Assembly (NCBI GenBank): GCA_040880725.1
Contig: JBBDHV010000030.1
Coordinates: 26,643 to 90,642 of the forward strand
Direction of reading: 5' to 3'
Length of the DNA: 64,000 nucleotides
From: Acidimicrobiia bacterium
GTDB taxonomy: Bacteria; Actinomycetota; Acidimicrobiia; Spongiisociales; ZC4RG35
Shown here: one piece after another, positions 2,027-19,595 of the stretch
How positions within the stretch are numbered: position 1 is the stretch's first letter
Layout of the letters: every line of letters begins with the position of its first letter
Notes under the pieces: model-generated
Seen by the model: the letters and a program-made list of their open reading frames with translations, nothing else
The model's database searches: none
Told to the model about the DNA's origin: nothing
Position numbers and translations under genes: made by a program

Positions 2027-3046
2027 ATGGACTGGTCTGCGATCCTGGGTCGGCTCGCCTCTGGCGACGACCTCACCCGCAATGAAGCTCGAGACGCGAT
2101 GGCGACGATCATGGCCGGGGAGGCGACGCCTGCTCAGATTTCCGCGCTCATCGTGTCGCTGCGAATCAAAGGTGAGACCATCGATGAGATGACCGGATTG
2201 GTCGAGGCGATGCGGGCGGCGGCGGTCACCGTGGACATCGGCGAGACCGTCGTCGACGTCGTGGGAACCGGTGGGGATCGGTCGGGGACGTTCAACATTT
2301 CGACCACTGCCGCCCTCATCGCGGCAGGTGCGGGAGCCAAAGTGGCGAAGCACGGCAATCGGTCGGCGTCGTCGAAATGCGGCTCTGCCGATGTGCTCGA
2401 AGGCCTCGGACTGAGGATCGATCTCGAACCCGAGCACACTGCCGAGATGGTTCGGGAGGTCGGCTTCGGCTTCTTCTTCGCTCCGCGCTATCACCCGGCG
2501 ATGCGCTTCGCCGGTCCGGTCCGCAAGGAACTCGGAATCCCCACGGTGTTCAACTTTCTCGGCCCGCTCGCGAACCCGGCGGGCGCCACTCGCCAGGTGG
2601 TCGGCGTCTCCGACGCCCGCATGGCCGAGCGGATGATCGGTGTGCTCGCCGGCCTCGGGTCGGAGTACGCCTTCGTGGTCTACGGCGAGGATGGACTCGA
2701 CGAGTTCACGACGACCGCACCCTCGTTCATCCATCGGCTCAAGAACGGCGAGATCACCACCGCCGAATTCACCCCCGAGGACTTCGGCGTGGCCCGGGCT
2801 ACGCCCGCCGATCTGCTCGGTGGTGATGTCGACGAGAACGTCGCCATCACCCGGGCGATTCTGGCGGGGGAGAAGGGTCCCAAGCGCGACGCTGCGGTGG
2901 TCAACGCCGCTCCTGCATTGGTGGTGGCCGAACTCGCCACAGGATTCCTCGACGGTGTGGCGTTGGCTGCCGAGACGATCGATTCGGGCGCAGCCGCCGA
3001 CACTCTGGAGCGGGCGATCGCGGCGAGTCGCGCGTTCGGCAGCTGA
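2027..3046 (+). CDS. trpD: Anthranilate phosphoribosyltransferase
   Basis: DVVGTGGD, NISTT, KHGNRSASSKCGSADVLE, GLDE motifs. Confidence 0.97.
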   Translation: MDWSAILGRLASGDDLTRNEARDAMATIMAGEATPAQISALIVSLRIKGETIDEMTGLVEAMRAAAVTVDIGETVVDVVGTGGDRSGTFNISTTAALIAAGAGAKVAKHGNRSASSKCGSADVLEGLGLRIDLEPEHTAEMVREVGFGFFFAPRYHPAMRFAGPVRKELGIPTVFNFLGPLANPAGATRQVVGVSDARMAERMIGVLAGLGSEYAFVVYGEDGLDEFTTTAPSFIHRLKNGEITTAEFTPEDFGVARATPADLLGGDVDENVAITRAILAGEKGPKRDAAVVNAAPALVVAELATGFLDGVALAAETIDSGAAADTLERAIAASRAFGS

Positions 3047-3047
3047 C

Positions 3048-3491
3048 GTGGCGGGACCGTCGGCCGAGGATCTGATCGGAGCCCTCCGAGCCGCGGGCAT
3101 GCGTATCACCCGGCCCCGGGTGGTCATGTGTGAGGTGCTCGCCGACGCACGTCATGAGCACCTGACCCCCCAGTTTCTGGGAGAACGGGCGCAATCTCGG
3201 CTGGGCGCCAGGATCGACCCTTCGACCGTGTATCGGACGCTCGAAGCCCTCACCGAGTGTGGGGCGGTCTATCACGTCCACCTCGGTCACGGTGCCGCGG
3301 TCATCCATCTGAGCGATCTCGATGCGCATCATCATCTCGTATGCGAAGTGTGCGATCGGACCGTCGACCTGCCGTTCGACGATGTGGTTGCCTTGACGGA
3401 CCACATCGGCAAGACCCATGACTTCGTGGTGGATTCGGTGCACTTCGCCATGGTCGGTCGATGTGCGAGCCATGATCGAAACGAAGCATGA
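3048..3491 (+). CDS. Fur-family regulator, probably nickel-responsive Nur
   Basis: RITRPR, STVYRTL, HVHLGHG (Nur-type metal site), HHHLVCEVC; Nur-type box and Ni/Co transporter downstream. Confidence 0.85.
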   Translation: MAGPSAEDLIGALRAAGMRITRPRVVMCEVLADARHEHLTPQFLGERAQSRLGARIDPSTVYRTLEALTECGAVYHVHLGHGAAVIHLSDLDAHHHLVCEVCDRTVDLPFDDVVALTDHIGKTHDFVVDSVHFAMVGRCASHDRNEA

Positions 3492-3543: not shown

Positions 3544-4176
3544 GTGCGTTTCTGGTCCTTTGTCATCCTCGTCGTCGTTCTCGCCGCCTGCGGTGGGAAT
3601 GGTGCCGACTCGACGCCCGGCACCGCTTCGACGCCGATTTCTGCGGTTCCCGACGCACCCGCGTCAACGGTGGCTCCTTCGGGTGAGGCAATATCCACGA
3701 CTGTGGCTCCTCGGGACGCCGGGACGACCACGACACGGCCCGCTCCGAACCCGGACCGCCAACTGGCACCCGACTTCTCGTTGACGTTGAGTGACGGCAT
3801 CGAGTACCAACTCGCCAACGAAACCCGGCCGGTCTACCTGGTGTTCTGGGCTGAGTGGTGAACGACATGTCGACGGGAGTTGCCCGTCGTCGATCAGATC
3901 TCCCTCGACTACGCCGACGAGGTGACGTTCGTGGCTCCGGCCTGGAAGGGCACGCTGCCTGCCACGACGGACCGTGCGAAACAACTCCTTCCGTCCGGGG
4001 TCATCCGATGGGGCCTGGACGAGGACGAGGTCGTATTCCAGGCGTTCGGGGTTCCGTATCAGCCGGTGACGGTGCTCATCGCGGCGGACGGCACGATCTT
4101 CGAGAGATGGGCGGGATTCAGGGACGAAGCGGGGATCCGCGAGTCGCTCGACCAGCTCGTTCCCGACGGGCTCTGA
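3544..4176 (+). CDS. TlpA/ResA-like thioredoxin-fold lipoprotein, predicted selenoprotein (UTTC)
   Basis: ORFs 3544..3861 and 3880..4176 are one frame: lipobox LAAC, APDFSL, VYLVFWAEW-TGA-TTCRRELP, cis-Pro FGVPYQP; hairpin directly after the TGA. Confidence 0.85.
3862..3892 (+). promoter_or_regulatory. Candidate bacterial SECIS element
   Basis: Stem CGACGGG(3871-3877)/CCCGTCG(3883-3889), loop AGTTG starting 16 nt after the UGA, with G at loop position 2. Confidence 0.65.
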
Positions 4177-4183
4177 GAGTCGC

Positions 4184-4210
4184 TATTCTTGTTGCAACCA
4201 GCTTGCAACA
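4184..4210 (+). promoter_or_regulatory. -10 box plus Nur-type operator TGTTGCAA-N5-TTGCAACA
   Basis: Perfect 8-5-8 inverted repeat 4190-4210 between TATTCT (4184-4189) and the AGGAGG RBS; matches the Streptomyces Nur consensus tTGCaa-N5-ttGCAA. Confidence 0.8.
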
Positions 4211-4219
4211 GGAGGCCGT

Positions 4220-5203
4220 GTGCACATCCCCGAAGGATTCATCAACCTGCCGACGTCGCTCGGTGCGGCCGCCGTTGCCGGAGGCAGTGTGTGGGGATCG
4301 CTGCGTGCGTCGAGTCGTGATCTGAAGGACCGCCTCGTCCCCTTCGCCGGATTGACCGCAGCATTCATCTTTGCGCTGCAGATGCTCAACTTTCCCGTCG
4401 CCGCGGGAACTACCGGCCATCTGCTCGGGGGCGCGCTGGCCGCAATTCTTCTCGGCCCATGGCTGGGGATCGTGGCGGTGACAGTGGTCGTCGTCGTCCA
4501 GGCGCTGCTCTTCGCCGATGGCGGCCTGGTGGCAATGGGCCTCAACGTCGTCAACATGGCGGTGATCACCTCGTTGTCCGGTTGGTATGTGTTTCGGGCC
4601 GTGGCCAAGTTGCTGCCCCGCCGGTCCGGGGTGTTGACGGGTGCATTGGCGGGAGCATGGGCGTCGGTGGTGGTGTCGTCGATCGGCTTTTCGCTGCAGT
4701 ACGCCATCGGCGGCGTCGGGGGAGTCGACCCTGGTCTCGTGTTCAGTTCGATGGTGGGAGTTCACGCCCTGATCGGGATCGGAGAAGGTCTGATCACCGC
4801 GGCGGCGGTCGGCGCGGTGCTTGCCGCCCGACCCGACCTGGTGACCGGAGCGCGGGATCTCGAGGACATGGAGTCGGCCGCGACGTCGCTGTCACGAAAA
4901 GCGGTCGGAGGCTTCGTCGGGGCGGGCCTGGCGGTGGCGGTGGCTCTCGTGGTGTTCGTCACCCCGATCGCCGGATCCGACCCCGACGGTTTGGAGCGGG
5001 TCGCCGAAGACACCGGGTTCGCGGCGGAAGCCGGCGACAACGCCTACAGCGGTCCGCTGGCGGACTACGGCGTCGCCGGACTCGACAACGAGGCGCTGGG
5101 GACGATCATTGCGGGAATCGTCGGGACCGGACTCACCTTCGCCGCCGGAATGATCCTGGTCGGTATCGCCCGAAGGCGGGCGCATCCTGTCGAGACTGCG
5201 TGA
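4220..5203 (+). CDS. Ni/Co ECF transporter substrate component, CbiM/NikM fused to PDGLE (NikN) domain
   Basis: N-terminal MHIPEG, FALQMLNFP, GHLLGG, HALIGIGEG, C-terminal DPDGLE. Confidence 0.93.
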   Translation: MHIPEGFINLPTSLGAAAVAGGSVWGSLRASSRDLKDRLVPFAGLTAAFIFALQMLNFPVAAGTTGHLLGGALAAILLGPWLGIVAVTVVVVVQALLFADGGLVAMGLNVVNMAVITSLSGWYVFRAVAKLLPRRSGVLTGALAGAWASVVVSSIGFSLQYAIGGVGGVDPGLVFSSMVGVHALIGIGEGLITAAAVGAVLAARPDLVTGARDLEDMESAATSLSRKAVGGFVGAGLAVAVALVVFVTPIAGSDPDGLERVAEDTGFAAEAGDNAYSGPLADYGVAGLDNEALGTIIAGIVGTGLTFAAGMILVGIARRRAHPVETA

Positions 5204-5964
5204 GCGGAGGCCATCTCCACGCCCTGCATGTGCACGGGCATTCGCCGGTGCACCGCATGGCGCCGGAGGCCAAGGTCGCGGCGCTTTTCGTCTTCGTATT
5301 GGGGGTCGTCGCCACTCCCCGCGAGGTGATGTGGGCATTCGGAATTCACGCGTTCCTGCTGCTCGCAGTCGTCACCTTCGCCGAGCTACCGGTCGGCTTC
5401 GTGCTTCGCAGGATGACCATCGAACTGCCGTTCATCGCCTTTGCGCTGTTCCTGCCGTTCCTCGGTGGCGGTCCGCAGACCGAGGTCTGGGGCATCGGAC
5501 TCTCCCAGGAGGGCCTGTGGGGCGCGTGGAACATCTTCGCCAAGGCCACCCTGGGGGTGGGGGCGTCGGTGACGCTGATCGCCACCACCGAGATCCCCCA
5601 TTTGCTGCACGGGTTGGATCGCCTGCGGGTGCCGCGGCTGTTCACCGCCATCGCCGGCTTCATGGTCCGGTACATCGAGGTGATCGCCGGTGAGGTCCAG
5701 CGGACGAGGACCGCGATGACTGCGAGGGGCCACGACCCCCGCTGGCTGTGGCAGGTGGGGCCCCTCGCGACGGCCGCAGGTGCCCTCTTCGTTCGGTCCT
5801 ACGAGCGGGGGGAGCGGGTGCACCAGGCGATGGTGGCGAGAGGCTACGACGGGCGCATGCCCACGCTCGACGAGAGGAAGGCGACGGCAGTCGAGTGGCT
5901 GTCGGCGATGGCGATCCCGTTGACGGCGTGGATGACCGTCCTGTTGGTGCTGGTGACGCCGTGA
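5200..5964 (+). CDS. cbiQ: Ni/Co ECF transporter T component
   Basis: SPVHR..PEAK, RYI.VI, LFVRSYERGERVHQAM.ARGY; GTGA overlap with upstream stop. Confidence 0.93.
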   Translation: MSGGHLHALHVHGHSPVHRMAPEAKVAALFVFVLGVVATPREVMWAFGIHAFLLLAVVTFAELPVGFVLRRMTIELPFIAFALFLPFLGGGPQTEVWGIGLSQEGLWGAWNIFAKATLGVGASVTLIATTEIPHLLHGLDRLRVPRLFTAIAGFMVRYIEVIAGEVQRTRTAMTARGHDPRWLWQVGPLATAAGALFVRSYERGERVHQAMVARGYDGRMPTLDERKATAVEWLSAMAIPLTAWMTVLLVLVTP

Positions 5965-6695
5965 GTGCGCTCGAGGTACGGGGGTTGCGTTTCAGCTATC
6001 CCGATGGGACGGAGGTGCTGCGCGGCGTCGACCTGACCGTGGGGGCATCCGAGCGGGTTGCGCTCCTCGGTCCCAACGGTGCGGGCAAGACGACGTTCGT
6101 GCTGCACCTCATCGGGATTCTCAGGGCCGCCGCGGGCACGGTGGCGGTCGACGGGGTGGAACTGACCGATGATTCGGTGCGCGAGCTGCGGGCGCGGGTC
6201 GGTTTCGTGTTCCAGGACCCCGACGACCAGTTGTTCATGCCCACGGTGCGACAGGATGTCGCCTTCGGACCTGCGAACTTCGGGCTCCGGGGGGACGAAC
6301 TCGAGCTGCGGGTGAAGGAAGCACTGACGATGGTGGGGATGAACCACGCCGCATCGAAGGCGCCACATCATCTCTCGGGGGGAGAGCGACGCCGGGTGGC
6401 GATCGCAACGGTGCTGGCCATGCAGCCGTCGATCCTCATCCTCGATGAGCCGTCGACGAATCTCGACCCTGCCGGGCGCAGGGAGCTCGCCGAGATCTTG
6501 TCCGGGCTCGACGTGACGCTCTTGATGGTGACACATGACCTTCCGTACGCCTTCGAGATCTGCGAGCGTTCGGTCGTGATGAGCGAAGGTGCGATCGCCG
6601 TCGACGGTCCCACTGCCGCAGTCCTCTCGGACGCCGAGGCCATGACCCGGCACCGCCTCGAACTCCCCGCCGGTTTCCACCCCCACCACCTCTGA
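5961..6695 (+). CDS. cbiO: Ni/Co ECF transporter ATPase
   Basis: GPNGAGKT, VFQDPDDQLF, HLSGGE, LDEP. Confidence 0.93.
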   Translation: MSALEVRGLRFSYPDGTEVLRGVDLTVGASERVALLGPNGAGKTTFVLHLIGILRAAAGTVAVDGVELTDDSVRELRARVGFVFQDPDDQLFMPTVRQDVAFGPANFGLRGDELELRVKEALTMVGMNHAASKAPHHLSGGERRRVAIATVLAMQPSILILDEPSTNLDPAGRRELAEILSGLDVTLLMVTHDLPYAFEICERSVVMSEGAIAVDGPTAAVLSDAEAMTRHRLELPAGFHPHHL

Positions 6696-6831: not shown

Positions 6832-8175
6832 ATGCGGATATTCGGAATCACGCTCGTACTCGTCGTCTCGGCATGCGGTGGAGGGGAAGTGATCGATTCG
6901 CCGGCCGGTGACTCGGACGCGATCCCCCTCTGTGAGGACGTTTCCACCATCAGCGCGCCGGATGATCGCTACGCCGATCGTCCGGTATACGTGGGAAACG
7001 AGATGCCGATCGACGAGGTCCAGACGTGGGCCGAGACCCAACCGGGATTCGAGACGCTGTGGATCGACCGGGACCACAACGGCTGGATCACGTTGGCCTT
7101 CAGCGAGAACGCCGACCAACGCCAGGCAGATGTCGAGGAGTTGTTCGCCGACGCCGGCGTCGTGGTGGTGCAAGTCGATTGGGCGATGGACGACCTCTCG
7201 GCCCTCCAATCATCCATTCCGGGCCGTTTCGAGCCCGGATTCGTCCAGACGACGGGCATCTCGGTCACACAAGGAGTGGTCACTGTCGGGATCGGACCGT
7301 TCACCGCCGAGCGTATTGCCACCGCCACCGCAGAACTCGCCGGTGAGCCGGTGTGCCTGGAGGGGATCGATCCAGAACTCGTTCCCGAACCCGGTCCGCA
7401 ACCGGAGGCCGGCGACGACTGGCGACTGCTCGCCGACGAGAAGACCGGGCAGGCGTACCGGACGATGATCGCCACCAACCTCGCCGACCTCGAAGAACTC
7501 TGGCGAGAGGCGGGAATCACCTCGCCGCTCCCCGATGTCGACTTAGAGGACGAAATCGTGATCTGGTTCGGCGCGGTCTACGGGTCCAGCTGTCCGAACC
7601 TGCGCATGGACGACGTGGTGATCGAAGACGGGCTCGTGTACCCCGAAATCGTGAATGTGGACGCACCCATGGCCTGTACCGGCGACGCCAATCCGCATGC
7701 CTATGTCGTCGCGGTCGAACGGTCGGCGTTCCCGTCCGAAGGGTTCGTCGTCCGCCTGCAAGCCGAGGAGCCGCCTCCCGGGGTGGTCGACCAGGAGACG
7801 ACAGTGCTGGGCGATGTGACGATTCCCGGGTCCTACGTTGTCGGAATTCGAGAAGAGCTCCCGACCGACCCCGGACTGCCCTCGGTCGAGGACGGCGGGG
7901 TGATCGAGCCCGGGTATCCGTGGATGTATCAGCTCTACGCCCACTGCGGCGTCGAATGGCTCGGAGAGGTCAATGGTGTTCAGTGGCGGGCCGAGCGGGT
8001 GGACGGTTCGATCGACTTCGTTCCCGAGGAGTGGCGAGCCGAGATCGATGGCGAGCAGTACCTCACCGTCGAGATTCTGTTGACCGAAGGTGATCCACCG
8101 GTGCTCGAAGCGACGGCGGCAGGGCACACCGTTCGCTACCTCCCGGCGACCGAAGATCCGCCGGGATGTGACTGA
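6832..8175 (+). CDS. Acidic multidomain lipoprotein of unknown function (central PrcB_C-like domain)
   Basis: Lipobox VSAC; paired Cys; PDVDLEDEIVIWF..GSSCP..ACT.D resembles PrcB C-terminal domain. Confidence 0.75.
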   Translation: MRIFGITLVLVVSACGGGEVIDSPAGDSDAIPLCEDVSTISAPDDRYADRPVYVGNEMPIDEVQTWAETQPGFETLWIDRDHNGWITLAFSENADQRQADVEELFADAGVVVVQVDWAMDDLSALQSSIPGRFEPGFVQTTGISVTQGVVTVGIGPFTAERIATATAELAGEPVCLEGIDPELVPEPGPQPEAGDDWRLLADEKTGQAYRTMIATNLADLEELWREAGITSPLPDVDLEDEIVIWFGAVYGSSCPNLRMDDVVIEDGLVYPEIVNVDAPMACTGDANPHAYVVAVERSAFPSEGFVVRLQAEEPPPGVVDQETTVLGDVTIPGSYVVGIREELPTDPGLPSVEDGGVIEPGYPWMYQLYAHCGVEWLGEVNGVQWRAERVDGSIDFVPEEWRAEIDGEQYLTVEILLTEGDPPVLEATAAGHTVRYLPATEDPPGCD

Positions 8176-8182
8176 CAGGCGC

Positions 8183-8230
8183 TTTTGGTCTGCGTTGCGC
8201 TTCATTGGTGGACCGCTGCCCCGCTAAAAA
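8183..8230 (+). repeat. 48-nt imperfect palindrome B, copy 1
   Basis: 42/48 identical to reverse complement of 25447-25494. Confidence 0.9.
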
Positions 8231-8259
8231 GCGATCTGGGCCATCTACCGTGGCCGGTC

Positions 8260-9681
8260 GTGCGCACATGGGAAACGGTTCAGTTTGCCGTCGTCGCCGT
8301 CGCTGTTCTCCTCCCGGTGGTGCTCGGCTACCGGCTGAAGCGGGGACGGCTGGCGGTCGTGCTTGCCGTGGCGATGGTCGCCCAACTGGTCATCGAGGGA
8401 TATCGCTGGCAGTTGCTGCCGCTCGAGGTCACCACTCTGGGCCTGGCCGTCACCGACGTTCTCCGCGAGGAGCGGCGCGTGCGCGGTGTGCAGCGGTTCC
8501 GACGCGGCGTGCTCGGTCCGGTGGGAGTCCTCGCGCTCGTGGTCCTGCCCATGGCGTTGCCGATACCTGAACTCCCCATCCCGACCGGGCCGTTCCCTGT
8601 CGGGACCCAGACGTTCGTGGTGATCGAAGAAGAACGACTCGAGGAGTACGGACTTCCGGAACAGGCGGAAGGCGAGGATCCGCCGGAACCCAGTGAACCC
8701 CGGCGGTTCGTCGTCCAGGCGTGGTACCCGGCCGCCGATGTGGAAGGGCTCGAACCGCTTCCCTGGAACCCCGACTTCGACGACTTCCGACCTGTTCTCG
8801 CTCGTCGTCTGGCGGTTCCGGGCTTCCTCCTGGGGCACCTCTCCGACCTCTCCTCGTCGAGCTACGACGGTCCCACTGCGGTGTCCGGCCGTCTCCCGGT
8901 GGTGATCTACTCGCACGGCTGGACCGGTTCTCGCACGCTCGCACTCCACCAACTGGAGTCGCTCGCCAGTCGCGGATTCATCGTGCTGGCCGCGGATCAC
9001 AGCTATGGATCGGTCGCATCGGTCTTTCCCAACGGCGAGGTCGTCGAGTACGACCCGCGCGCGCTTCCCGAGGACCTCGAGGCTGACTCCGAGGAATACC
9101 GCGCAGCTGCCGAACAGCTCGTTGAGACTTTCTCCGAAGACCTGATCTCGATCCTCGACGCCCTCGAAGCGGGTGCGAGCGGCCCGCTCTCGCGTCTGCG
9201 GGCCGACCCAGATCTGTCTCGCATCGGGATCTTCGGCCACTCCACAGGGGGCGGTGCCGCCGTCCGAACCTGCATCGAGGACACCCGCTGCGCGGCGGTG
9301 CTGGGCCTCGATGCCTGGGTCAATCCGATTCCCGACCGCGTCGTCGCGGTGGAACTCTCCCAGCCGAGCCTCTTCATGCGCTCGGACGGGTGGCGGGGCA
9401 CGCCGAATGACGGGCGTCTTCGTGGCTTGGCGGAACGCAGCGCGTTCGAGTCCTATTGGATCGGGATCGACGGGGCTGCGCACAACGACTTCTTGCTGAC
9501 TCCGGTCTTCTCGCCGGTCGCCGCCCGGCTGGGATTGAAGGGTCCGATCGACGCCGACCGGGTCATCCCGATCATCGACACGTACCTCACTGCCTTCTTT
9601 CAGCGCCACCTCATGGGAACGGGCGGGTCAGCCCTCGACGAATCGCCCCCCGCCGAGGTATCTCTCGAATTTCTTCCTTGA
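8260..9681 (+). CDS. Membrane-anchored alpha/beta hydrolase (PAF-acetylhydrolase/chlorophyllase-like)
   Basis: N-terminal TM helices with EGYRWQ; PTGPFPVG, YSHG, LASRGF, nucleophile GHSTGG, LDAW, His in GAAHND; start estimated. Confidence 0.88.
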   Translation: MRTWETVQFAVVAVAVLLPVVLGYRLKRGRLAVVLAVAMVAQLVIEGYRWQLLPLEVTTLGLAVTDVLREERRVRGVQRFRRGVLGPVGVLALVVLPMALPIPELPIPTGPFPVGTQTFVVIEEERLEEYGLPEQAEGEDPPEPSEPRRFVVQAWYPAADVEGLEPLPWNPDFDDFRPVLARRLAVPGFLLGHLSDLSSSSYDGPTAVSGRLPVVIYSHGWTGSRTLALHQLESLASRGFIVLAADHSYGSVASVFPNGEVVEYDPRALPEDLEADSEEYRAAAEQLVETFSEDLISILDALEAGASGPLSRLRADPDLSRIGIFGHSTGGGAAVRTCIEDTRCAAVLGLDAWVNPIPDRVVAVELSQPSLFMRSDGWRGTPNDGRLRGLAERSAFESYWIGIDGAAHNDFLLTPVFSPVAARLGLKGPIDADRVIPIIDTYLTAFFQRHLMGTGGSALDESPPAEVSLEFLP

Positions 9682-9711
9682 TTCGTGGTCGGATCGGCCG
9701 ACAGGACAACC

Positions 9712-10104
9712 ATGAACCCTCCCACAGGCAAGGTGGTGCTCCTGATCGAGGACCATCCTGCGATCCGACATCTGATCTCGGTAGTGCTCGAACGCCCGGA
9801 CATCCACATCGTGTTCGCCGCGGACGGACTGAGCGGGCTCGAAGCGATCGACGCCCACGAACCCGACCTGCTCCTACTCGACCTCCTGCTGCCCGACATC
9901 AGCGGGTGGGAGGTGCTGCAGTGGGTCAGGGCACGGAGGTCGGAGTCCGAACTCCCCGTTCTCATCGTCACCGCGTATGGGGGCGACGGGGACGAACACA
10001 AAGCCTTCGATCTCGGCGCGAACGGCTATCTCGCCAAGCCGTTCGACCCGGGAGCGCTGCGGGATGCCGTCACCGGGATGCTGGGCGGCTGTCCCGCCGT
10101 CTGA
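9712..10104 (+). CDS. Single-domain response regulator (CheY-like)
   Basis: LLIEDH, LLDLLLPD, TAY, YLAKPF. Confidence 0.9.
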   Translation: MNPPTGKVVLLIEDHPAIRHLISVVLERPDIHIVFAADGLSGLEAIDAHEPDLLLLDLLLPDISGWEVLQWVRARRSESELPVLIVTAYGGDGDEHKAFDLGANGYLAKPFDPGALRDAVTGMLGGCPAV

Positions 10105-10698
10105 TCAGTCCTCCGGGCTGGACTGCACGTCGCCGACGACCTGCTGTCCGGGGTCCTCGCCGCGCCTGATCGCATCGAGAGTCTGGCCGAGCAGCAGGGC
10201 GTTCGACTCGCCCTGGATCTTCCCGACGACCACGCCGTCGCCATCGATGAAGTACGTCTCGGGGACACCGAAGACGCCAAAGGAAATCGCCGCCCGCCCG
10301 TTCGGGTCATCGAGGTACAGGGTGCTGTCGCTGCGCCCCAGGTCGTCGAGAAACGCATTGGCGTCCGCCACGTCGTCCTGAAATGCCACTTGCACCACCC
10401 GGACGCCGGATCCGCTGAACCCGTCGGCCACCGCAACGAGGTCGTCGTGTTCGAGCCGGCACTCGAGGCACCAGGAGGCGAAGAAGTTGACGACGACGAT
10501 GGACCGGTCGCCCGTCGGAAGTTCCACCGTTCCGGAGCCGTCGAGCGCCGGGAGGGCGAACGTCGGAGCGGGACGTCCGATGAGTGGCGACGACACCAGG
10601 TTCGGGTCTCCGCCGAAGCGTGACGCCAACACCACGCTGAGGGCGACAGAGAAGATGACCACCGCCCACGCGGCGCGTCGGACCCATCGGGTGGTCAC
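10105..10698 (-). CDS. ccmG: CcmG/DsbE thiol:disulfide oxidoreductase
   Basis: TM anchor, SPLIGRPAP, NFFASWCLEC, GVPETYFID; last gene of ccm operon. Confidence 0.88.
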   Translation of the reverse strand: MTTRWVRRAAWAVVIFSVALSVVLASRFGGDPNLVSSPLIGRPAPTFALPALDGSGTVELPTGDRSIVVVNFFASWCLECRLEHDDLVAVADGFSGSGVRVVQVAFQDDVADANAFLDDLGRSDSTLYLDDPNGRAAISFGVFGVPETYFIDGDGVVVGKIQGESNALLLGQTLDAIRRGEDPGQQVVGDVQSSPED

Positions 10699-11471
10699 GC
10701 GCACGGCTCCCCGTTCGACGCCAAGGCGAGATCCGCTTCGACCTGGCTGCGGGTGACGGCGTCGAGTTGGTCCGAACCGAGTACCTGTTCGAAGAGCTCG
10801 GTGGCAGCCACAGCGTCGCCCGAGCCACACCACAGGATCTGGCCCTTGACGTAGATCGCCTCGGTGGATACGGGCGTGGCTTCGATCGCCCGGTCGATCA
10901 CCTGCAGCGCCAGGTCCACCTCACCGTTGCCGACGAAGGTGATCCAGGCGATCCGGGTCATCGTGGCAGTGAAGAGATCCGGGGGCGGGTCGCCGGCGAG
11001 GATCGCCTCGTAGTGACCGAACGCTCGTTGGAACTCGCCGCGTTCGAAGTACCGCTCGGCGAGCGCGAAGCGCATGAACGGGAGCTGGGCTGCGACTTGG
11101 GGGTCGTCGGCGTTGGCGGCGATCACCGCCTCCATCGTCTCGTCCGAGTAGTCCTCGGGATCGAAATCGCCGCCGCTCGCGATTCCCTGCAGCGCTCCCG
11201 ACGGCTCTTCCGCGGTGGATCCGAGAACGGCAATGGTGATGGCGAATCCGGTCACGAGAATGAGGGCGCCGCCGATCAGCCGCGGGCGAGAGCGGGACGC
11301 TGCCGCGGGTGCGGTGCTGGGCGACTCGGTTGCCAGGGCATCGAGTTCGGAGCGATACAGGCTGCGGAGTCGTTGGGCGGTCTCCTCGTCGATCTCGCCT
11401 GCGGCGACCTGCTGTTCGACGTCTTCGAGATCGAGGCGGACCTGCGCGATCTGTTCGGTGACGTCCGTCAT
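10695..11471 (-). CDS. CcmI/CycH-like TPR membrane protein
   Basis: L.D.E...AAGEID....LR..Y motif, TM helix, TPR-like helices; position in ccm operon. Confidence 0.75.
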   Translation of the reverse strand: MTDVTEQIAQVRLDLEDVEQQVAAGEIDEETAQRLRSLYRSELDALATESPSTAPAAASRSRPRLIGGALILVTGFAITIAVLGSTAEEPSGALQGIASGGDFDPEDYSDETMEAVIAANADDPQVAAQLPFMRFALAERYFERGEFQRAFGHYEAILAGDPPPDLFTATMTRIAWITFVGNGEVDLALQVIDRAIEATPVSTEAIYVKGQILWCGSGDAVAATELFEQVLGSDQLDAVTRSQVEADLALASNGEPCA

Positions 11472-11974
11472 CGTTCGACCTCTTCTGGCAGGTCCGCGTC
11501 CCGAACTGTGGGCTCAGGACCACCGCCACGGTGGTCTGGAACCCTGGGTTCGGGACCACCGCCACGGTGGTCGGGGGCCCACGGTTGGGGGCGGTGGCGG
11601 GTGCGGGAGAGGGCGGCGGTGATTCCGAGAGCGAGGGCGAGAGCCGGGATCAGCCAGAGAGCGGCGGTCTCCACGGTCAATGGGGGGTCGAGGAGTTGGG
11701 CGCCGCTGTACGAGGCGATCAACTCGTCGATGATCTGGTCGTCCGAGAGGCCCTCTGCGATCCTGGCGCGAACCAAGGCCATCATGTCTTCGGCGAGTGG
11801 TGCGGGGGAGTCGACGATCGCTTCGCCCTGGCAGGTCGGGCAGCGGATCAGCGCCCCGATTTCCCGGGCTCGGTCCTCATCCGGGGGGGCGGCCGTGACG
11901 GTGGCCACCACGATGAACGCGGCGAGAGCGATCGTCACCGCCACCCGGAGTCGTCCCAGCACCCCTTCAGGCAT
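11468..11974 (-). CDS. ccmH: CcmH cytochrome c biogenesis protein with repeat-derived C-tail
   Basis: IRCPTCQG..I.DS, G.SDDQI....Y, LW.IP; tail contains PDHRGGGPEP twice. Confidence 0.9.
   Translation of the reverse strand: MPEGVLGRLRVAVTIALAAFIVVATVTAAPPDEDRAREIGALIRCPTCQGEAIVDSPAPLAEDMMALVRARIAEGLSDDQIIDELIASYSGAQLLDPPLTVETAALWLIPALALALGITAALSRTRHRPQPWAPDHRGGGPEPRVPDHRGGGPEPTVRDADLPEEVER
11501..11590. repeat. 36-bp-period palindromic tandem repeat inside ccmH
   Basis: GGACCACCGCCACGGTGGTC occurs twice, 36 bp apart, with related spacers; homologous to 1941-1992. Confidence 0.88.
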
Positions 11975-13994
11975 GGATCTGCTGTTTTTGCGGTGCGTTG
12001 CGCCTGGCACGCAGCGAGATGAATCCGCCTGCCGCCGCCAGGATCCCTCCCAGCCACACGAGCCATTGCAGGGGCGAACTGTCCAACGAGACGATGATCT
12101 CCCGCGAGCCGGGATCGATCGTCCGCAACGTCGTGTAGAGGTCCCCGGCCGGAGTGGTGTGCACCGACGGGGTGATGATCGCCTGCGCGGAGTTGTCGTA
12201 TTGGGCGAGTCTGGGACGGAGCGTCGTCACCGGGTCGCCGTCACGCGCCACGTCGAGCCGAACACCGACGATCGTCCGGTTGGGCTCGTTGACCGTGAAC
12301 GGGGCGACGTAGGTGACTTCCCAGCCGTCGAACCGCACGACGTCGTCCGGCACCATCGTGACCTGATCGTGTACCGCGAGGTTCGACGCGAACGCGATGC
12401 CGAGCGCGAGCACCGCCACTCCGACATGGGACACCTGGCCGCCCCAGTATCCGGGGTCGCGGGCAAAGAGGCGGCGTCCCTCCGCCCACACGCCGGTCTC
12501 CCGCACCGATGCCGCGTGTCGTGCCTGGGCCCAGAAATGGTTCCCGATGACGGCGATCACGAAGGTGCAGAGCACCACCGCGATCACGACCCACCCGATG
12601 GTCGTCGTGGCAATCACGGTCACCGCACCCGCCGCGAGGGCGACTTGCAGAGGGCCGTGGATACGGGACCACACCAGATCCGGCCGGGCCACCCGCCACG
12701 GCATGACCGGACCCACCCCCATCCCCAGCAGCAGCGCAAAGCTCAGCGGCACCGCCAGTCGGTTGTAGAACGGCTCGCCAACCCGCACGGTTGAACCGGT
12801 GATCGCCTCGAGGAACAGCGGATAGACCGTTCCCACGAGGACCACGAAGGCGTACACCGTGAGGATCAGGTTGTTGTACAGGAACGAACCCTCCCGGCTG
12901 GACAGGGACTCCAGGCGGGACGGCTGGGCGACGTCATTGGCGCGCAGGGCGAAAAGACCGAACGAGACGATCAGCACGATGACGAGGAACGCAAGCAGGA
13001 CCGGTCCGATGGCGGACTGGGTGAACGAGTGGACCGAGGCGATGGTCCCCGAGCGGGTGAGGAACGTCCCGAGGATCGTCAGCGCGAAGGCGGAGATGAC
13101 GAGGACGAAGTTCCAGGACTGGAGCATGCCGCGGCGACGTTGCACGAGGGCGCTGTGGATGAAGGCCGTCGCCACGAGCCACGGCATGAACGAGGCGTTC
13201 TCCACGGGGTCCCACGCCCAGTATCCGCCCCACGACAGGACTTCGTAGGCCCACCATCCTCCGAGGACGATGCCGAGGGTGAGAAACGCCCAGGCGATGG
13301 TCGTCCACCGCTTGGACCGGTCGAGCCACGCAGGGCCCGAGATGCGCTGGGCGAGGGCGGACATGGCGTAGGCGAACGGGACGGTCAGACCGACGTAGCC
13401 GATGTAGAGCATCGGAGGGTGGATGGCCATGAGCAGATGGTTCTGCAGCAGCGGGTTGGGCCCGGCCCCATCGGCAGGGCTCACTGCACCGACGAGTGGG
13501 AGGGGGGACGAGTCCAGGCAACGGCTGACTCCTTCGGCGATGGCGGTGCACGTCTCGAACGGGTTGGACACGGTGACCATCAGCCCGAAGAAGAACACGC
13601 TCACCATCCCCATCACCGCAACCGCACCAGCTCCGAGTTTGTCGGGGGTGAGACCGTGATCGCGGGCGACCACCCAGGTGAACCCTGCCAACACGAGTCC
13701 CCACAGGACGATCGAACCTTCCAGTGCCGCCCACGCAGTGGCGACGTCGAAGGGGAAGGGCGTGGCGCTCGAATGGTTGTTGGCCAGATACGACAGGGTG
13801 AAGTCGTTCACCTGCAATCCGACCTGGAGGACACCCATCGCGGCGATCGACGCCCACAGCAGGATCCGCGCCGGGCGACGGAGGTCGGCTGCCACCTCCG
13901 GTGTCCGCGCCGTTCGTACCGCCTGTGCCGTCAGGACGACGGCAGCTCCGAGGGCCACGAGCATCGTGACGGTGCCCGCGAGGGCAAGCATCAA
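11967..13994 (-). CDS. ccmF: Cytochrome c synthetase CcmF
   Basis: NPLLQ..HPP, WWD domain WAYEVLSWGGYWAWDPVENAS, SVHSF, HVGV. Confidence 0.96.
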   Translation of the reverse strand: MMLALAGTVTMLVALGAAVVLTAQAVRTARTPEVAADLRRPARILLWASIAAMGVLQVGLQVNDFTLSYLANNHSSATPFPFDVATAWAALEGSIVLWGLVLAGFTWVVARDHGLTPDKLGAGAVAVMGMVSVFFFGLMVTVSNPFETCTAIAEGVSRCLDSSPLPLVGAVSPADGAGPNPLLQNHLLMAIHPPMLYIGYVGLTVPFAYAMSALAQRISGPAWLDRSKRWTTIAWAFLTLGIVLGGWWAYEVLSWGGYWAWDPVENASFMPWLVATAFIHSALVQRRRGMLQSWNFVLVISAFALTILGTFLTRSGTIASVHSFTQSAIGPVLLAFLVIVLIVSFGLFALRANDVAQPSRLESLSSREGSFLYNNLILTVYAFVVLVGTVYPLFLEAITGSTVRVGEPFYNRLAVPLSFALLLGMGVGPVMPWRVARPDLVWSRIHGPLQVALAAGAVTVIATTTIGWVVIAVVLCTFVIAVIGNHFWAQARHAASVRETGVWAEGRRLFARDPGYWGGQVSHVGVAVLALGIAFASNLAVHDQVTMVPDDVVRFDGWEVTYVAPFTVNEPNRTIVGVRLDVARDGDPVTTLRPRLAQYDNSAQAIITPSVHTTPAGDLYTTLRTIDPGSREIIVSLDSSPLQWLVWLGGILAAAGGFISLRARRNAPQKQQIHA

Positions 13995-14404
13995 CCCGGC
14001 TCCGACTCGGGGACGTTGCCGCTGGGAGGTGCCTCGTACTCGGCCTCATGGCGGATGAGCGCCTCGTCGGCCTCGAAGATGTCGCCGGACCACGCCCCTT
14101 CCAACAGCACCTCGACGTTCTCGCCGAACAGCGGTGGCGGCAGCGAGACCAGGCGGACGGTCACGGTTGCCCCACCGTCGGAGATGTCGAAGGTGGACTC
14201 ACCCCGCCCTTCCACCACGGAACCGGGAACGACGGTTCCGGCGATGCGAAAGCGCTGACTGTCCGGAAACTCGGCCTTGGCCTCGACGGCCTCGTTGGCG
14301 TAGAGGTAGTAAACCGACGCGTCTCCCGCCGCACGGACGAGAAAGACCGATGCCACGCCGATTCCGAGGATCGCCGGGACGAGAAACAGCCGGTAGTTGG
14401 TCAC
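13991..14404 (-). CDS. ccmE: Heme chaperone CcmE
   Basis: N-terminal TM, YY, R.AG.V.PGS, PP.F, HxxxY heme motif (HEAEY). Confidence 0.9.
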   Translation of the reverse strand: MTNYRLFLVPAILGIGVASVFLVRAAGDASVYYLYANEAVEAKAEFPDSQRFRIAGTVVPGSVVEGRGESTFDISDGGATVTVRLVSLPPPLFGENVEVLLEGAWSGDIFEADEALIRHEAEYEAPPSGNVPESEPG

Positions 14405-14520
14405 GGCCGGCGGTCAGTCGACTGATCGTGCTGACGGAGCCGGCGCCACAGCGTGACGGCGTACCCGACGATCAGTCCGTACGTGGCGAGATAGGCGGCC
14501 CAGATGTAACCCTGGCTCAC
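14401..14520 (-). CDS. ccmD: CcmD small membrane protein
   Basis: 39 aa MSQGYIWAAY..TM..RRLR between ccmC and ccmE with overlapping start/stop codons. Confidence 0.8.
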   Translation of the reverse strand: MSQGYIWAAYLATYGLIVGYAVTLWRRLRQHDQSTDRRP

Positions 14521-15233
14521 GACAGTCCCTCGAGATTCGGTTTGGCGACGGTACGGCCGGCGAGTTCGGTGTCGGCGACCGCAGCGATCTCTTCCACCCG
14601 TGCCAGGCGGACACGTTCGACCATCAGGTACAGGTACAGCAGCGTGAAAGCCGCGATGTTGGCGAGGAGTGCGACGACCATCGATCCGTCCATCGCGATG
14701 CCGTCCGGGCGGACGGTCATGCCCTGGTGGAGCGACCGCCACAACGTCACCGAGAAGTAGACCAGGGGGACCTGGACGACGGCAACGATTCCGAGGATGG
14801 CGCTGCGCCGAGCACGGGCGATCGGGTCGTTCACGGATCTGCGTAGTGCCAGATACCCGAGGTAGACGAAGAACATGAGCGCGGTCGAGGACATGCGGGG
14901 GTCACTCCAATCCCAGAACGTCCCCCACACGGGGTAGCCCCACAGCATTCCTGTGAAGAGCGACACGGCAGTGAACAAGACGCCGATCTCGGCGGATGCT
15001 TCGGCGATGCGGTCGAACGCCATGCGCTTGGTGAGCAGCCAACCCGCCGAGCCGAGCGCCGTGACGCCGAAAGCGAGAAACGCGAGCCACGACCCGGGGA
15101 CGTGGACGTACAGGATCCGCACGTAATCGCCTTGGAAGACGTCGGGCGATGAGGTGAACGCCAGCCACAATCCGGAGGCGATGGCGACCAGCGCCGCGGC
15201 TCCGAGGATCGCTCTGGGGATCGTACGGCTCAT
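14517..15233 (-). CDS. ccmC: Heme exporter CcmC
   Basis: RILYVHVP, WG.P.WGT.W.W.DPR, WRSLHQ. Confidence 0.95.
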   Translation of the reverse strand: MSRTIPRAILGAAALVAIASGLWLAFTSSPDVFQGDYVRILYVHVPGSWLAFLAFGVTALGSAGWLLTKRMAFDRIAEASAEIGVLFTAVSLFTGMLWGYPVWGTFWDWSDPRMSSTALMFFVYLGYLALRRSVNDPIARARRSAILGIVAVVQVPLVYFSVTLWRSLHQGMTVRPDGIAMDGSMVVALLANIAAFTLLYLYLMVERVRLARVEEIAAVADTELAGRTVAKPNLEGLS

Positions 15234-15904
15234 GTGTTCGACTCCTCCAATGCGCGTGCCGTCACCACGCCGGTGACGGCCAAAGCGAGGTCAGTGACCA
15301 CCAGTGTCAGCACCCACGGAAGGGTAGTTCGCCCCCGGACAACCGATTCCAGCGCCTGGGCCGCCCCCAGCAGCAGTGGGACCGAGACCGGGACGATCAG
15401 CAGCGGGGCGAGGGACGTGCGGGTGGCGAGGCCGGCAGTGACGTCGCCGGCAAGTGTCGACACCATGGCCAGGCCCAGCGCGAACAGCACGAGCACTCCC
15501 GCCATCGACCACGGCCGCGCGATCGGTTCGGGGTCATAGAAGAGCAATACCAGGGGGGCGGTCACCACGAGAACGACCAGCACCAACGCCGCAGCGGAGA
15601 GCACACGACCGGTGAAACGCGCCACAGGGTCGACTCCCAGAAGTGCGAGTTGCCGACGCTGGGAAGGGGTTTCCATCGCCGACTGTCGCAGCGCGACCTG
15701 CATGCCGAACAGCAACCCGACGAGCCAGTAGACGGGGAACGCCAGCGTGGCGAGCCGCACGTCGAGGGCGTCGGTGGCGAACGGGACGACGAAGACCGCC
15801 GCCGCGGCGAAGGGCACCACGACGGCGACCGTCTCACGAGACCGCCCCTCGACGATCAGATCGCGCCGCGCGATTGCCAGCGCCTGTGTCCAGAACCTGC
15901 TCAC
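15230..15904 (-). CDS. ccmB: Heme exporter permease CcmB
   Basis: ARRDL.VE.RSRE start, L.PLL..P..VP.L motif, about six TM helices; between ccmA and ccmC. Confidence 0.85.
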   Translation of the reverse strand: MSRFWTQALAIARRDLIVEGRSRETVAVVVPFAAAAVFVVPFATDALDVRLATLAFPVYWLVGLLFGMQVALRQSAMETPSQRRQLALLGVDPVARFTGRVLSAAALVLVVLVVTAPLVLLFYDPEPIARPWSMAGVLVLFALGLAMVSTLAGDVTAGLATRTSLAPLLIVPVSVPLLLGAAQALESVVRGRTTLPWVLTLVVTDLALAVTGVVTARALEESNT

Positions 15905-16536
15905 GGCGCCTCCGAGTCGAGGATGAGGACCTCGTCGCATTCCGCGCGGAGGCGTGCGGCGTCGTGGGAAACCATCACGACGGCACCGCCCCGGCGACAG
16001 GTGAGATCGGTGAGGGCGCCGACGATGGCGTCGGCGTCCTCGTCGAGGCCGGCATGTGCCTCGTCGAGGCAGAGCAGATCGGGTCGGCGCATCAGCAACG
16101 CCGCGAGGTCGGTACGCCTGCGCATGCCGTTCGAGGACAACCCGGCCCTGCGATGTCCGGCAGCGGCCAGCCCCACCCGGCCCAGCGCGTCGTCGGCCTC
16201 CTCGCGGGACAGCCCGGCGAGGTCGGCGGTGAGGTGAAGGTTCTCCTGCAGTGTGAGATCGTCGTACAGGGAAGGCTCGTGGCCCGACCACCCGATTCGA
16301 GGTCGAATGTTCCGCACACCGTCCGTCCCGAGTTCTGCCCCGAGCACCCGCCCCTGTCCGCCGGCAACCGGGACGAGTGTGGCGATCACGCCGAGCAGCG
16401 TGGTCTTGCCGACGCCGTTGCGGCCTCCCACACCGACGACCATGCCCGCCTCGACCTGCAGTCCCACGCCCGACAGCACGGTGGTCGGTCCGAAACGGAC
16501 GGAGACATCGTCGAGCATCACGATCGGACCAGGCAT
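15901..16536 (-). CDS. ccmA: Heme ABC exporter ATPase CcmA
   Basis: GRNGVGKTT, GH...LY.DLT..ENL, S.GMRRR, LDE. Confidence 0.88.
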   Translation of the reverse strand: MPGPIVMLDDVSVRFGPTTVLSGVGLQVEAGMVVGVGGRNGVGKTTLLGVIATLVPVAGGQGRVLGAELGTDGVRNIRPRIGWSGHEPSLYDDLTLQENLHLTADLAGLSREEADDALGRVGLAAAGHRRAGLSSNGMRRRTDLAALLMRRPDLLCLDEAHAGLDEDADAIVGALTDLTCRRGGAVVMVSHDAARLRAECDEVLILDSEAP

Positions 16537-18481: not shown

Positions 18482-19122
18482 CCGGCGACTGCGATCACGA
18501 CGCCCACCACCACTGCCGCGAGGTACCACTCGACCGGACCGCCGGAAATGGACACCCTGAGGGGTTCGGTCAAGGCGCGGACGCCTCCCGCGGCGGCGAT
18601 GCCGAGCCCGGTTGCCGTCCATGGACGGGTTGGGAATCCCGCGACGAGGACGGCCGCGACGACCATGCCGATCGCGGCGTAGAGCTCGACCGGGTGACGT
18701 GTCACCGCGGTACCGGCAGAGGTCATCGCCCACGGGACATCGGAGACAGTCCCGAGGCAGGTGCCGCGCCAGAGGCAGCCACCGTGCCATCCCGCCAGAC
18801 CGGCCAACGCCGCAGGTGCGAGCTGATCGAGGGCGGTGGGCAGCCGGTGGCGGTGGGTCCAGGCCAACGTCGCGAGTGCGCCGAGGGTGGCGAAGACGGT
18901 CGAGACGCCGCCGCGCACGATCAGGATGTCCCCGGGGCGGAGCAACGGGTTGACCCCCGTCCCGATCATCGCCGCCACCCTCCCGACTGCGAGACCCACC
19001 GCCGCCGCGCCGATCAGGGCGTCGGTGGGGCGGTCGACCTCCACACGGCGGGCGAGAAGACGATTGGTGACCCAGACTGCGGCGGCGCCGGTCAGCGCGG
19101 CAGCAAGCAGAGTGAGCTCCAT
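18421..19122 (-). CDS. Divergent Lgt-like membrane protein
   Basis: Lgt-like order of motifs: GR, RGG.S, LD..AP, G..G...D.PW, HP.ELY; catalytic positions altered. Confidence 0.7.
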   Translation of the reverse strand: MELTLLAAALTGAAAVWVTNRLLARRVEVDRPTDALIGAAAVGLAVGRVAAMIGTGVNPLLRPGDILIVRGGVSTVFATLGALATLAWTHRHRLPTALDQLAPAALAGLAGWHGGCLWRGTCLGTVSDVPWAMTSAGTAVTRHPVELYAAIGMVVAAVLVAGFPTRPWTATGLGIAAAGGVRALTEPLRVSISGGPVEWYLAAVVVGVVIAVAGHRLTRTRPPGPSSMETAPP

Positions 19123-19595
19123 CAGTCCTCGGCCAGGAGGTCGTCGATTCCGAGTGCGAGGGCGCTGTCGTCGATCACGCCGAAATGGGTTCGCATGATC
19201 TCGCCTCCTGGGCGGACGAACACAGTCACCGGAAGCCCGGTGGCGCCGAGATGTCCTCGGATCGCACCGGATCTGTCGAACCGGTTGTCGAATCTCAGTT
19301 CGAACTCGTCGAGGAAGGTGAGCGCGTCGGACTGTGTGTCTTCGGTCGCCACGCCGAGGAACGTCACGTCATCACCGAAGGTGGCGTGAGCCTCCCGCAG
19401 CAGCGGTGCCTCGGAACGGCACGGGATGCACCACGACGCCCACAGGTTCACGACCATCGGCCGTGGCGAGGCTTCGACCATCGCCTGGAATTCATCGACG
19501 GTGATCGGGTCCAGTTCACCATCGATGGGCGACATCTCATCCGAGCATGCACCGAGCACGGCGACGATGACGATGACGATGACGGCTCGGCGCAT
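19122..19595 (-). CDS. TlpA-family thioredoxin lipoprotein
   Basis: Lipobox LGAC, VNLWASWCIPCRSEAP, GLPVTVF. Confidence 0.92.
   Translation of the reverse strand: MRRAVIVIVIVAVLGACSDEMSPIDGELDPITVDEFQAMVEASPRPMVVNLWASWCIPCRSEAPLLREAHATFGDDVTFLGVATEDTQSDALTFLDEFELRFDNRFDRSGAIRGHLGATGLPVTVFVRPGGEIMRTHFGVIDDSALALGIDDLLAED

Follow-up and report, generated by a model that had tools for sequence, protein, structure and literature searches.

Selenoproteins with a UxxC motif, in which selenocysteine (Sec, U) takes the first position, have been described from marine metagenomes. The available text of two papers reports UxxC selenoproteins homologous to thiol-disulfide isomerases, together with peroxiredoxin (Prx)-like thiol:disulfide oxidoreductases, from the Sargasso Sea and Global Ocean Sampling (GOS) metagenomes (PMC1088965, PMC2398784). 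A 2026 review lists, in the part available, a UxxC family assigned to cd02966 (TlpA-like) and a UGC-containing TlpA family (PMC13188914). Here we describe a gene of this kind in a 64-kb stretch of DNA from a bacterium of the class Acidimicrobiia (the window, meaning all 64,000 nucleotides analysed). Positions 3544-4176 of the window very probably form a single gene for an exported, lipid-anchored, 210-residue ResA/TlpA-like selenoprotein in which an internal UGA is decoded as Sec. A first-pass annotation, made from the letters of the sequence, had proposed such a protein and had taken the existence of UxxC selenoproteins with a thioredoxin fold as established, which the three sources, in the parts available, bear out.

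Reading frame, database records and codon 106

The coding sequence (3544..4176, + strand) runs from a GTG start at 3544 to a TGA stop at 4174-4176 and comprises 210 codons plus the terminal TGA; its orthologs align over the full length. The sole internal TGA lies at 3859..3861 (+ strand), codon 106, in the context VYLVFWAEW-U-TTC-RRELPVVD. Read as selenocysteine (U106), it would occupy the first position of a U-T-T-C motif, in a column that is conserved as TGA, while the putative resolving cysteine of the UxxC motif, C109 (3868..3870, + strand), is an invariant alignment column. The first-pass annotation had placed the TGA at the first Cys position of a WCxxC motif (FWAEW-U-TTC-RRELP) within a frame intact over 210 residues, and the sequence agrees with it on both counts. 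It had also held that the gene was split by the open reading frame caller. This is the case, as the gene calls in the window consist of a 105-residue N-terminal piece (P0076) and a 98-residue C-terminal piece (P0077).

Codon differences among seven sequences of the window's genus extend across the TGA. On its 3' side, differences at codon positions 1:2:3 number 353:256:956, with 666 synonymous and 462 non-synonymous codon differences, and the 32 codons on its 5' side show a comparable third-position excess (106:78:285). By these counts the half downstream of the TGA is evidently translated, in the same frame, and both halves are under apparent purifying selection.

We searched 40 related genomes and the window's own genome in six frames and found one ortholog in each of 28 other genomes (72-40% identity to the window protein). 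With the window, the 29 orthologs span its genus, family and order. The codon aligned to position 106 is TGA in 27 of the 28 other genomes, or 28 of 29 including the window, so that the assignment survives comparison with homologs at exactly this codon. The lone exception, L034 of genome G015, has TGC. A paralog with TGT and 34-35% identity (L048 of G023) was excluded from the ortholog counts. In a class sample of 301 genomes drawn evenly, 59 had a match at E <= 1e-25, all of them in the window's order (families f1, f2, f5, f6, f9, f10 and f12), and no match was found at this threshold in the other sampled families of the class. One TGA is present in 60 of the 63 matches, a figure that counts TGAs per match, the codon position having been located only for the 29 orthologs. 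The three matches without TGA come from G015 and G216, which belong to one genus, and from G097. The Sec form thus predominates in the family, which we found in one order. The ortholog and selA tallies include two unpublished genomes (G027 and G038), the class-sample tallies include G278, and the ccmE tally given below also includes G297; none of our conclusions depends on any one of these genomes.

In family f12, genomes have an additional copy of lower identity (39-43%), again with one in-frame TGA each (G035:C15:43682-44191, G270:C9:3592-4029, G136:C106:2-403 and G144:C150:426-833). It may be a duplicated, putatively Sec-containing paralog. The residue following U is Pro in 6 of the 28 Sec forms and otherwise T, S, G, L, H, I, R or A, and the first Cys is followed by Pro in 66 of 67 Cys forms (C-P-V/T-C). 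The constraint on the residue after position 106 seems to be relaxed in sequences where Sec is predicted to replace Cys.

The Cys forms were detected in a database search for proteins of near full length, which returned 74 proteins at E <= 1e-10. These include 67 full-length Cys forms with FWAEW-C-x-x-C (mostly FWAEW-C-P-[VT]-C), five N-terminal fragments ending in FWAEW, one protein with W and one without the motif. The protein with W (P0057, a JGI record) is full-length and reads FWAEW-W-GSC; either it is a TGG variant or the record was translated with a code in which TGA is Trp. A search for shorter proteins returned 583 at E <= 1e-8, mostly named "hypothetical protein [Acidimicrobiia bacterium]". 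Among the best 120 of these, 103 start at a Leu codon, TTG, inside the loop of the hairpin described below, and four end in FWAEW; of the remaining 13, the six examples shown all start after the TGA. Since short fragments occur in hundreds of records, the split is routine, as the first-pass annotation had expected, and their names place the lineage in the class Acidimicrobiia. We also scanned a genome collection with the Cys-codon pattern FWAEWCxxC, which is blind to TGA forms, and among the matches listed found distant Cys relatives only, with 22-50% identity over short segments.

Positions 3859-3861 are uniform in contigs from three DNA runs (sediment metagenomes from one study), with neither TGC nor TGT at the codon; the nearest variant is an A>C change at 3862. 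These contigs lend limited and non-independent support, because the source sample may be among those sequenced and rare variants are lost from contigs. In the same runs (X1-X3), summed contig depth is about 3- to 4-fold higher over the TGA and hairpin (window 3842-3909), and a 44-nt contig (3856-3899) is common to all three. Both observations fit the presence of co-occurring relatives with an identical stretch at which assemblies break.

Probable SECIS hairpin and selenocysteine machinery

Directly 3' of the C109 codon lies a candidate bacterial selenocysteine insertion sequence (SECIS) at 3871..3889 (+ strand). It has a perfect 7-bp stem, CGACGGG (3871-3877) pairing with CCCGTCG (3883-3889), and an AGUUG loop (AGTTG in the DNA, 3878-3882) that starts 16 nt after the UGA. 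The published model for bacterial SECIS elements, in the part of the review available, specifies a loop of 3-9 nt whose first two nucleotides include a G, as a rule with G or U after it, a stem of 4-16 bp, an energy of <= -7.5 kcal/mol and a distance of 16-37 nt from UGA to loop (PMC13188914). The hairpin agrees with all of these rules, having a 5-nt loop in which G and U are the second and third nucleotides, 7 bp, a spacing of 16 nt and -15.8 kcal/mol. The 39 nt from the UGA fold at this energy with z = -2.49, equaled by 4 of 200 shuffles. Energy by itself says little, and the comparative evidence therefore carries the case.

When the 28 TGA forms are aligned (7 pairs, 189 cells), 98.9% of cells hold standard pairs, and 34-79% do when the 3' arm is slid by 1-3 columns as a control. 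Four of the seven pairs show compensatory changes (C-G to G-C; G-C to A-U or C-G; A-U to G-C; G-C to A-U), and none of 500 shuffles reached the covariation score. Because these changes alter the encoded residues (CARELPA, CKRELPV and CQRELPV), the stem appears to be kept at the cost of the protein sequence. In the TGC ortholog L034, two of the seven pairs are possible by hand count. The hairpin of 7 bp with a G-containing loop 16 nt after the UGA, which the first-pass annotation had likened to bacterial SECIS geometry, is thus confirmed by both the published rules and covariation.

The window's genome (60 contigs, 86% complete) encodes selA (437 bits) with selB adjacent (283 bits) and selD (389.5 bits), all above curated cut-offs, and a tRNA-Sec that scores 78 bits against its model, also above cut-off, for which ARAGORN gives the anticodon tca. 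The machinery needed for the proposed decoding is accordingly all found in the genome. The selD gene (G000:C21:96106-97029, L010) itself appears to encode a selenoprotein, with one in-frame TGA giving U in GAG-U-ACK followed by a strong hairpin, and G035 shows the same. Sec use had been supposed to be uncommon in this lineage. This did not hold up, since selA is present in 37 of 41 related genomes and Sec use is common in the order. For Actinomarina, Sec machinery and about five predicted selenoproteins per genome have been reported, with no thioredoxin or TlpA named in the available part of the text (10.64898/2026.04.03.716425).

The four genomes without a selA match are G015, G021, G023 and G035, and G021 and G023 have no ortholog. 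G015, the carrier of the TGC ortholog (95% complete), yielded no selA, selB or selD, and its best tRNA-Sec score of 50 bits is at the level of other tRNAs. It is the only one of the 29 ortholog-bearing genomes that lacks selA, selB, selD and a convincing tRNA-Sec. Across these genomes the predicted Sec/Cys state of the family tracks the Sec machinery.

Protein architecture, neighboring genes and alternative readings

The protein begins with a putative signal peptide ending in the lipobox L-A-A-C (3544..3591, + strand), whose cysteine, Cys16 (codon 3589-3591), does not vary among the 28 sequences with a complete N terminus, L026 being cut by a contig end. Genes for Lgt and LspA were found in the window's genome, and the prediction of an exported, lipid-anchored protein is upheld by these sequence features. 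A linker rich in Pro, Thr, Ser and Ala follows (3592..3753, + strand); it is poorly conserved, variable in length and predicted to be disordered, and the AlphaFold2 model has a mean predicted local distance difference test (pLDDT) score of 49-66 per 10-residue block over residues 1-60. From residue 71 onward the block means are 91-98, and the whole model averages 84.9.

This well-modeled part corresponds to a thioredoxin-fold (TlpA/ResA-like) domain (3757..4173, + strand) recognized by Pfam, AlphaFold2 and Foldseek. Residues 74-191 match Pfam Redoxin (PF08534) at 40.1 bits (cut-off 26.6), with further matches to AhpC-TSA (30.6 bits, cut-off 26) and Thioredoxin (31.7, cut-off 23.5). The best Foldseek match is Bacillus subtilis ResA 1su9_B (target TM-score 0.92, root-mean-square deviation 1.4 Å), and DsbE, DsbF, Etrx, SdbA, StoA and CcmG follow. 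The best sequence-profile matches are the chains 4hqs, 4hqz and 2yp6 ("thioredoxin family protein", E = 1.5e-21 to 4.8e-20), with ResA next. The TlpA-like character claimed at first pass therefore stands, with Pfam Redoxin above its cut-off and ResA as the best structural match. Scores against the NCBIfam models for ResA (NF002854, 48.8 bits, cut-off 170) and CcmG/DsbE (TIGR00385, 32 bits, cut-off 123.15) fall below the cut-offs. In the model, U106 sits just before the helix 107-123, at the start of helix 1. Both flanks of the TGA contain invariant residues (P96, F101, W102, A103, W105, C109, E112, L113, P114, W156, D159, Q173, P174, W189 and G191). Among these, Gln173-Pro174 (4060..4065, + strand) occupies the place of the thioredoxin-fold cis-proline loop, a configuration expected from the family.

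From the established bacterial mechanism, we would expect SelB carrying Sec-tRNA(Sec) to bind the hairpin at 3871-3889 and to insert Sec at the UGA. The lipoprotein signal peptide would then direct export and Cys16 would be acylated, as its sequence pattern predicts, so that the disordered linker of about 55 residues would hold the domain on the outer face of the cytoplasmic membrane, the outward orientation being that of the family. By analogy with related proteins, U106 would most likely attack a disulfide of an envelope protein to form a mixed selenosulfide. C109 would resolve this to an Se-S bond, which could be re-reduced by a CcdA/DsbD-type membrane electron carrier, and two CcdA/DsbD-type genes were found in the window's genome.

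The gene is preceded in the window by trpD (2027-3046) and a gene for a Fur-family regulator (3048..3491, + strand; Pfam FUR 73.3 bits) and followed by a cbiM transporter gene encoding CbiM and PDGLE domains (4220..5203, + strand; 189 and 53 bits). Further downstream are an ABC ATPase (5748-6695), a gene without Pfam match (6832-8175), a PAF-AH-like hydrolase (8185-9681), a response regulator (9685-10104) and a System I cytochrome c maturation (Ccm) cluster (10105-16536, - strand) with genes for a CcmG-like redoxin, a TPR protein, CcmH, CcmF, CcmE, a CcmC-type protein and an ABC ATPase. The two Cys paralogs that the first-pass annotation had noted in the window, FASWCLEC and WASWCIPC, were both located. 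The first (10108-10833, - strand) is the CcmG-like protein beside the ccm genes and carries GVFGVPET, which we take to be a CcmG signature. The second (19125-19595, - strand) carries a lipobox-like V-L-G-A-C and has a weak Lgt-family match (47 bits, about 18487-19098, - strand) directly downstream.

We compared 29 loci over about 1.5 kb on either side and found trpD in 17, the Fur-family gene in 14 and cbiM in 13. Among the 16 loci without cbiM, 14 were scanned, L028 and L040 being left out as both are cut by contig ends. The PAF-AH-like hydrolase follows the selenoprotein gene directly or after one small gene in 5 of the 14. In L035 and L046 a CcmG-like redoxin and a TPR gene are convergent with it, and in L041, L042 and L043 another redoxin or thioredoxin gene adjoins it. 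Comparing the reported places, we found 11 genomes, the window's among them, in which 4-13 kb separate the gene from ccmE. Apart from two genomes treated below, the two genes are on different contigs in the remaining genomes for which both places are reported. The conserved neighborhood points weakly to the Ccm cluster as the client.

Between the stop of the selenoprotein gene and the start of cbiM lies a palindrome, TTGCAA-N5-TTGCAA (4192..4208, on neither strand in particular), which is the single match to this pattern in the 64 kb, with 0 expected by chance. Allowing at most one mismatch, it precedes cbiM in 13 of 13 cbiM loci (the window, L020-L027, L030, L036, L037 and L039) and is found in 0 of the 16 others. 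The palindrome is similar to the operator bound by Nur, the nickel regulator of Streptomyces, and the CbiM-type transporter may accordingly belong to a Nur-like regulon. As it stands directly before cbiM and downstream of the selenoprotein gene, cbiM apparently has its own regulated promoter.

Several observations weigh against the reading of the gene as a selenoprotein reductase linked to Ccm. The selenium in the protein is read from DNA sequence alone. For the hairpin, a 60-nt window has a fold energy not distinguishable from shuffles (z = -0.26) and its lowest-energy fold lacks this hairpin. Conservation of the stem is partly a protein-level effect, since its seven pairs also encode the conserved C-R-R-E-L-P-V, and Rfam gave no match at E <= 10 over 3700-4050, an uninformative result as bacterial SECIS elements are poorly represented there. 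One genome, G035, has a TGA form with no selA match found; a gap in its assembly is the more probable explanation, given a tRNA-Sec of 80 bits, a selD that contains TGA and a partial selB. As to the client, G228 and G140 have ccmE on the same contig as the gene but at a distance of over 400 kb, and CcmE is present in 277 of 301 class genomes while the selenoprotein family is found in one order only. CcmE being near-universal in the class, the Ccm link is positional and does not explain the confinement of the family to one order. Finally, the fold matches include mycobacterial DsbE and DsbF, which we take to be oxidants, whereas the mechanism outlined above runs in the reductase direction.

A more specific proposal would make the seleno-lipoprotein a dedicated partner, either of the CbiM-type Ni/Co transporter under Fur-family control or of System I Ccm. 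Instead of working as a general reductase, it would direct its selenolate at a metal ion or at a specific client, for example apocytochrome c or CcmH, and together with selD it would be a main reason why the order keeps its Sec machinery. We regard this proposal as unlikely. We give a slim chance to the related possibility that the UxxC lipoprotein is an extracytoplasmic Ni-, Co- or Cu-handling partner of the CbiM-type energy-coupling factor (ECF) transporter under the Fur-family regulator, its selenolate-thiolate pair capturing or handing over the metal. The order Fur-family gene, selenoprotein gene, cbiM recurs in 13 of the 29 loci, whose orthologs come from two or more families and are as low as 47% in identity, and heavy-metal binding has been proposed for selenoproteins in transport systems, according to the part of a preprint available (bioRxiv 10.1101/2022.07.06.499078). 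However, the candidate operator placed downstream of the selenoprotein gene in all 13 of these loci gives cbiM an apparent promoter of its own, the other 16 loci lack cbiM and there the gene has a PAF-AH-like hydrolase or a CcmG-like redoxin as its neighbor, and the fold and best matches are those of thiol-disulfide oxidoreductases.

It is very improbable that the UGA is read by a near-cognate ordinary tRNA (Trp or Cys), or that TGA is a sense codon in the lineage, with no selenium involved. The W of P0057 would fit such decoding, as would the fact that Sec incorporation is deduced from DNA only. On the other hand, TGA also serves as the normal stop codon in this gene and in 20 of the 29 orthologs, the homologs have Cys and not Trp (67 full-length proteins with Cys, one with W), the TGC form has lost the covarying hairpin that stands at the spacing of a SECIS, and the TGA form goes together with the Sec machinery. 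Least credible of all is a true stop, in a pseudogene or between two small genes of 105 and 98 residues, as the two pieces called in hundreds of records (583 short proteins, with 103 of the best 120 starting at the loop TTG) and the conservation of that TTG might suggest. Such a stop would cut one thioredoxin fold within its active-site motif, and this fold is modeled with pLDDT above 90 on both sides of the cut. The TGA is retained by 60 of 63 matches throughout the order, with both halves apparently under purifying selection in one frame. The Cys forms have an uninterrupted gene, and L034 has CTG in place of the TTG.

Comparison with described systems

Decoding of the UGA as Sec in an exported lipoprotein remains the reading we favor, and it would have practical consequences. 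Public databases break a gene distributed across an order into two fragments, usually under the name "hypothetical protein", and a family model that reads TGA as Sec would mend many records. The protein would carry selenium-based redox chemistry to the outside of the membrane in Acidimicrobiia of sediment, soil and water, and the natural pair of Sec and Cys forms within one family could serve to test what Sec gives to an exported thiol oxidoreductase. Knowledge of Sec decoding and of the kinds of bacterial selenoproteins is unchanged by this gene. Our literature search found no paper naming this Acidimicrobiia family, although supplementary tables, which were outside the search, might list it.

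The first-pass annotation was thus right about the identity of the predicted protein as an exported UxxC seleno-lipoprotein, but overstated its rarity, as papers from 2005 onward, going by their available parts, describe UxxC TlpA-like selenoproteins and seleno-lipoproteins are already curated. The marine-metagenome UxxC selenoproteins (Zhang et al. 2005; Zhang & Gladyshev 2008), compared here by their descriptions in the available text, likewise have a TlpA-like thioredoxin fold with Sec first in UxxC, abundant Cys homologs and a SECIS directly after the UGA. They differ in that the same text assigns them neither to lipoproteins nor to Acidimicrobiia, both of which apply here.

ResA of B. subtilis (PDB 1su9, 1st9) is alike in being a membrane-tethered extracytoplasmic thioredoxin fold with its motif in the same place, the structural match covering 137 columns, and differs in sequence (24-27% identity to the listed ResA chains). 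ResA serves System II cytochrome c maturation, whereas the window's genome has System I. Its motif is C-E-P-C and its anchor a transmembrane segment. In Streptococcus pneumoniae, the known client of Etrx1 and Etrx2 is an extracellular methionine sulfoxide reductase fed by CcdA. According to their PDB titles (4hqs, 4hqz and 2yp6), these proteins are also lipid-anchored, exposed lipoproteins with a thioredoxin fold, but they use Cys and not Sec.

Two curated NCBIfam models, NF041057 (Rcas_1661 (seleno)lipoprotein) and NF041054 (ResA-like WAxxUGC), are proof that thioredoxin-like seleno-lipoproteins and ResA-like selenoproteins have already been recognized. The window protein scores 22.2 bits against the first (cut-off 190) and 23.0 bits against the second (cut-off 300), and its motif is WAEW-U-x-x-C as opposed to the WAxxUGC of NF041054, so that the gene lies outside both. 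It belongs to the same broad kind as the known UxxC TlpA-like selenoproteins, as far as these are described in the text available, and stands outside the curated models against which it could be tested.

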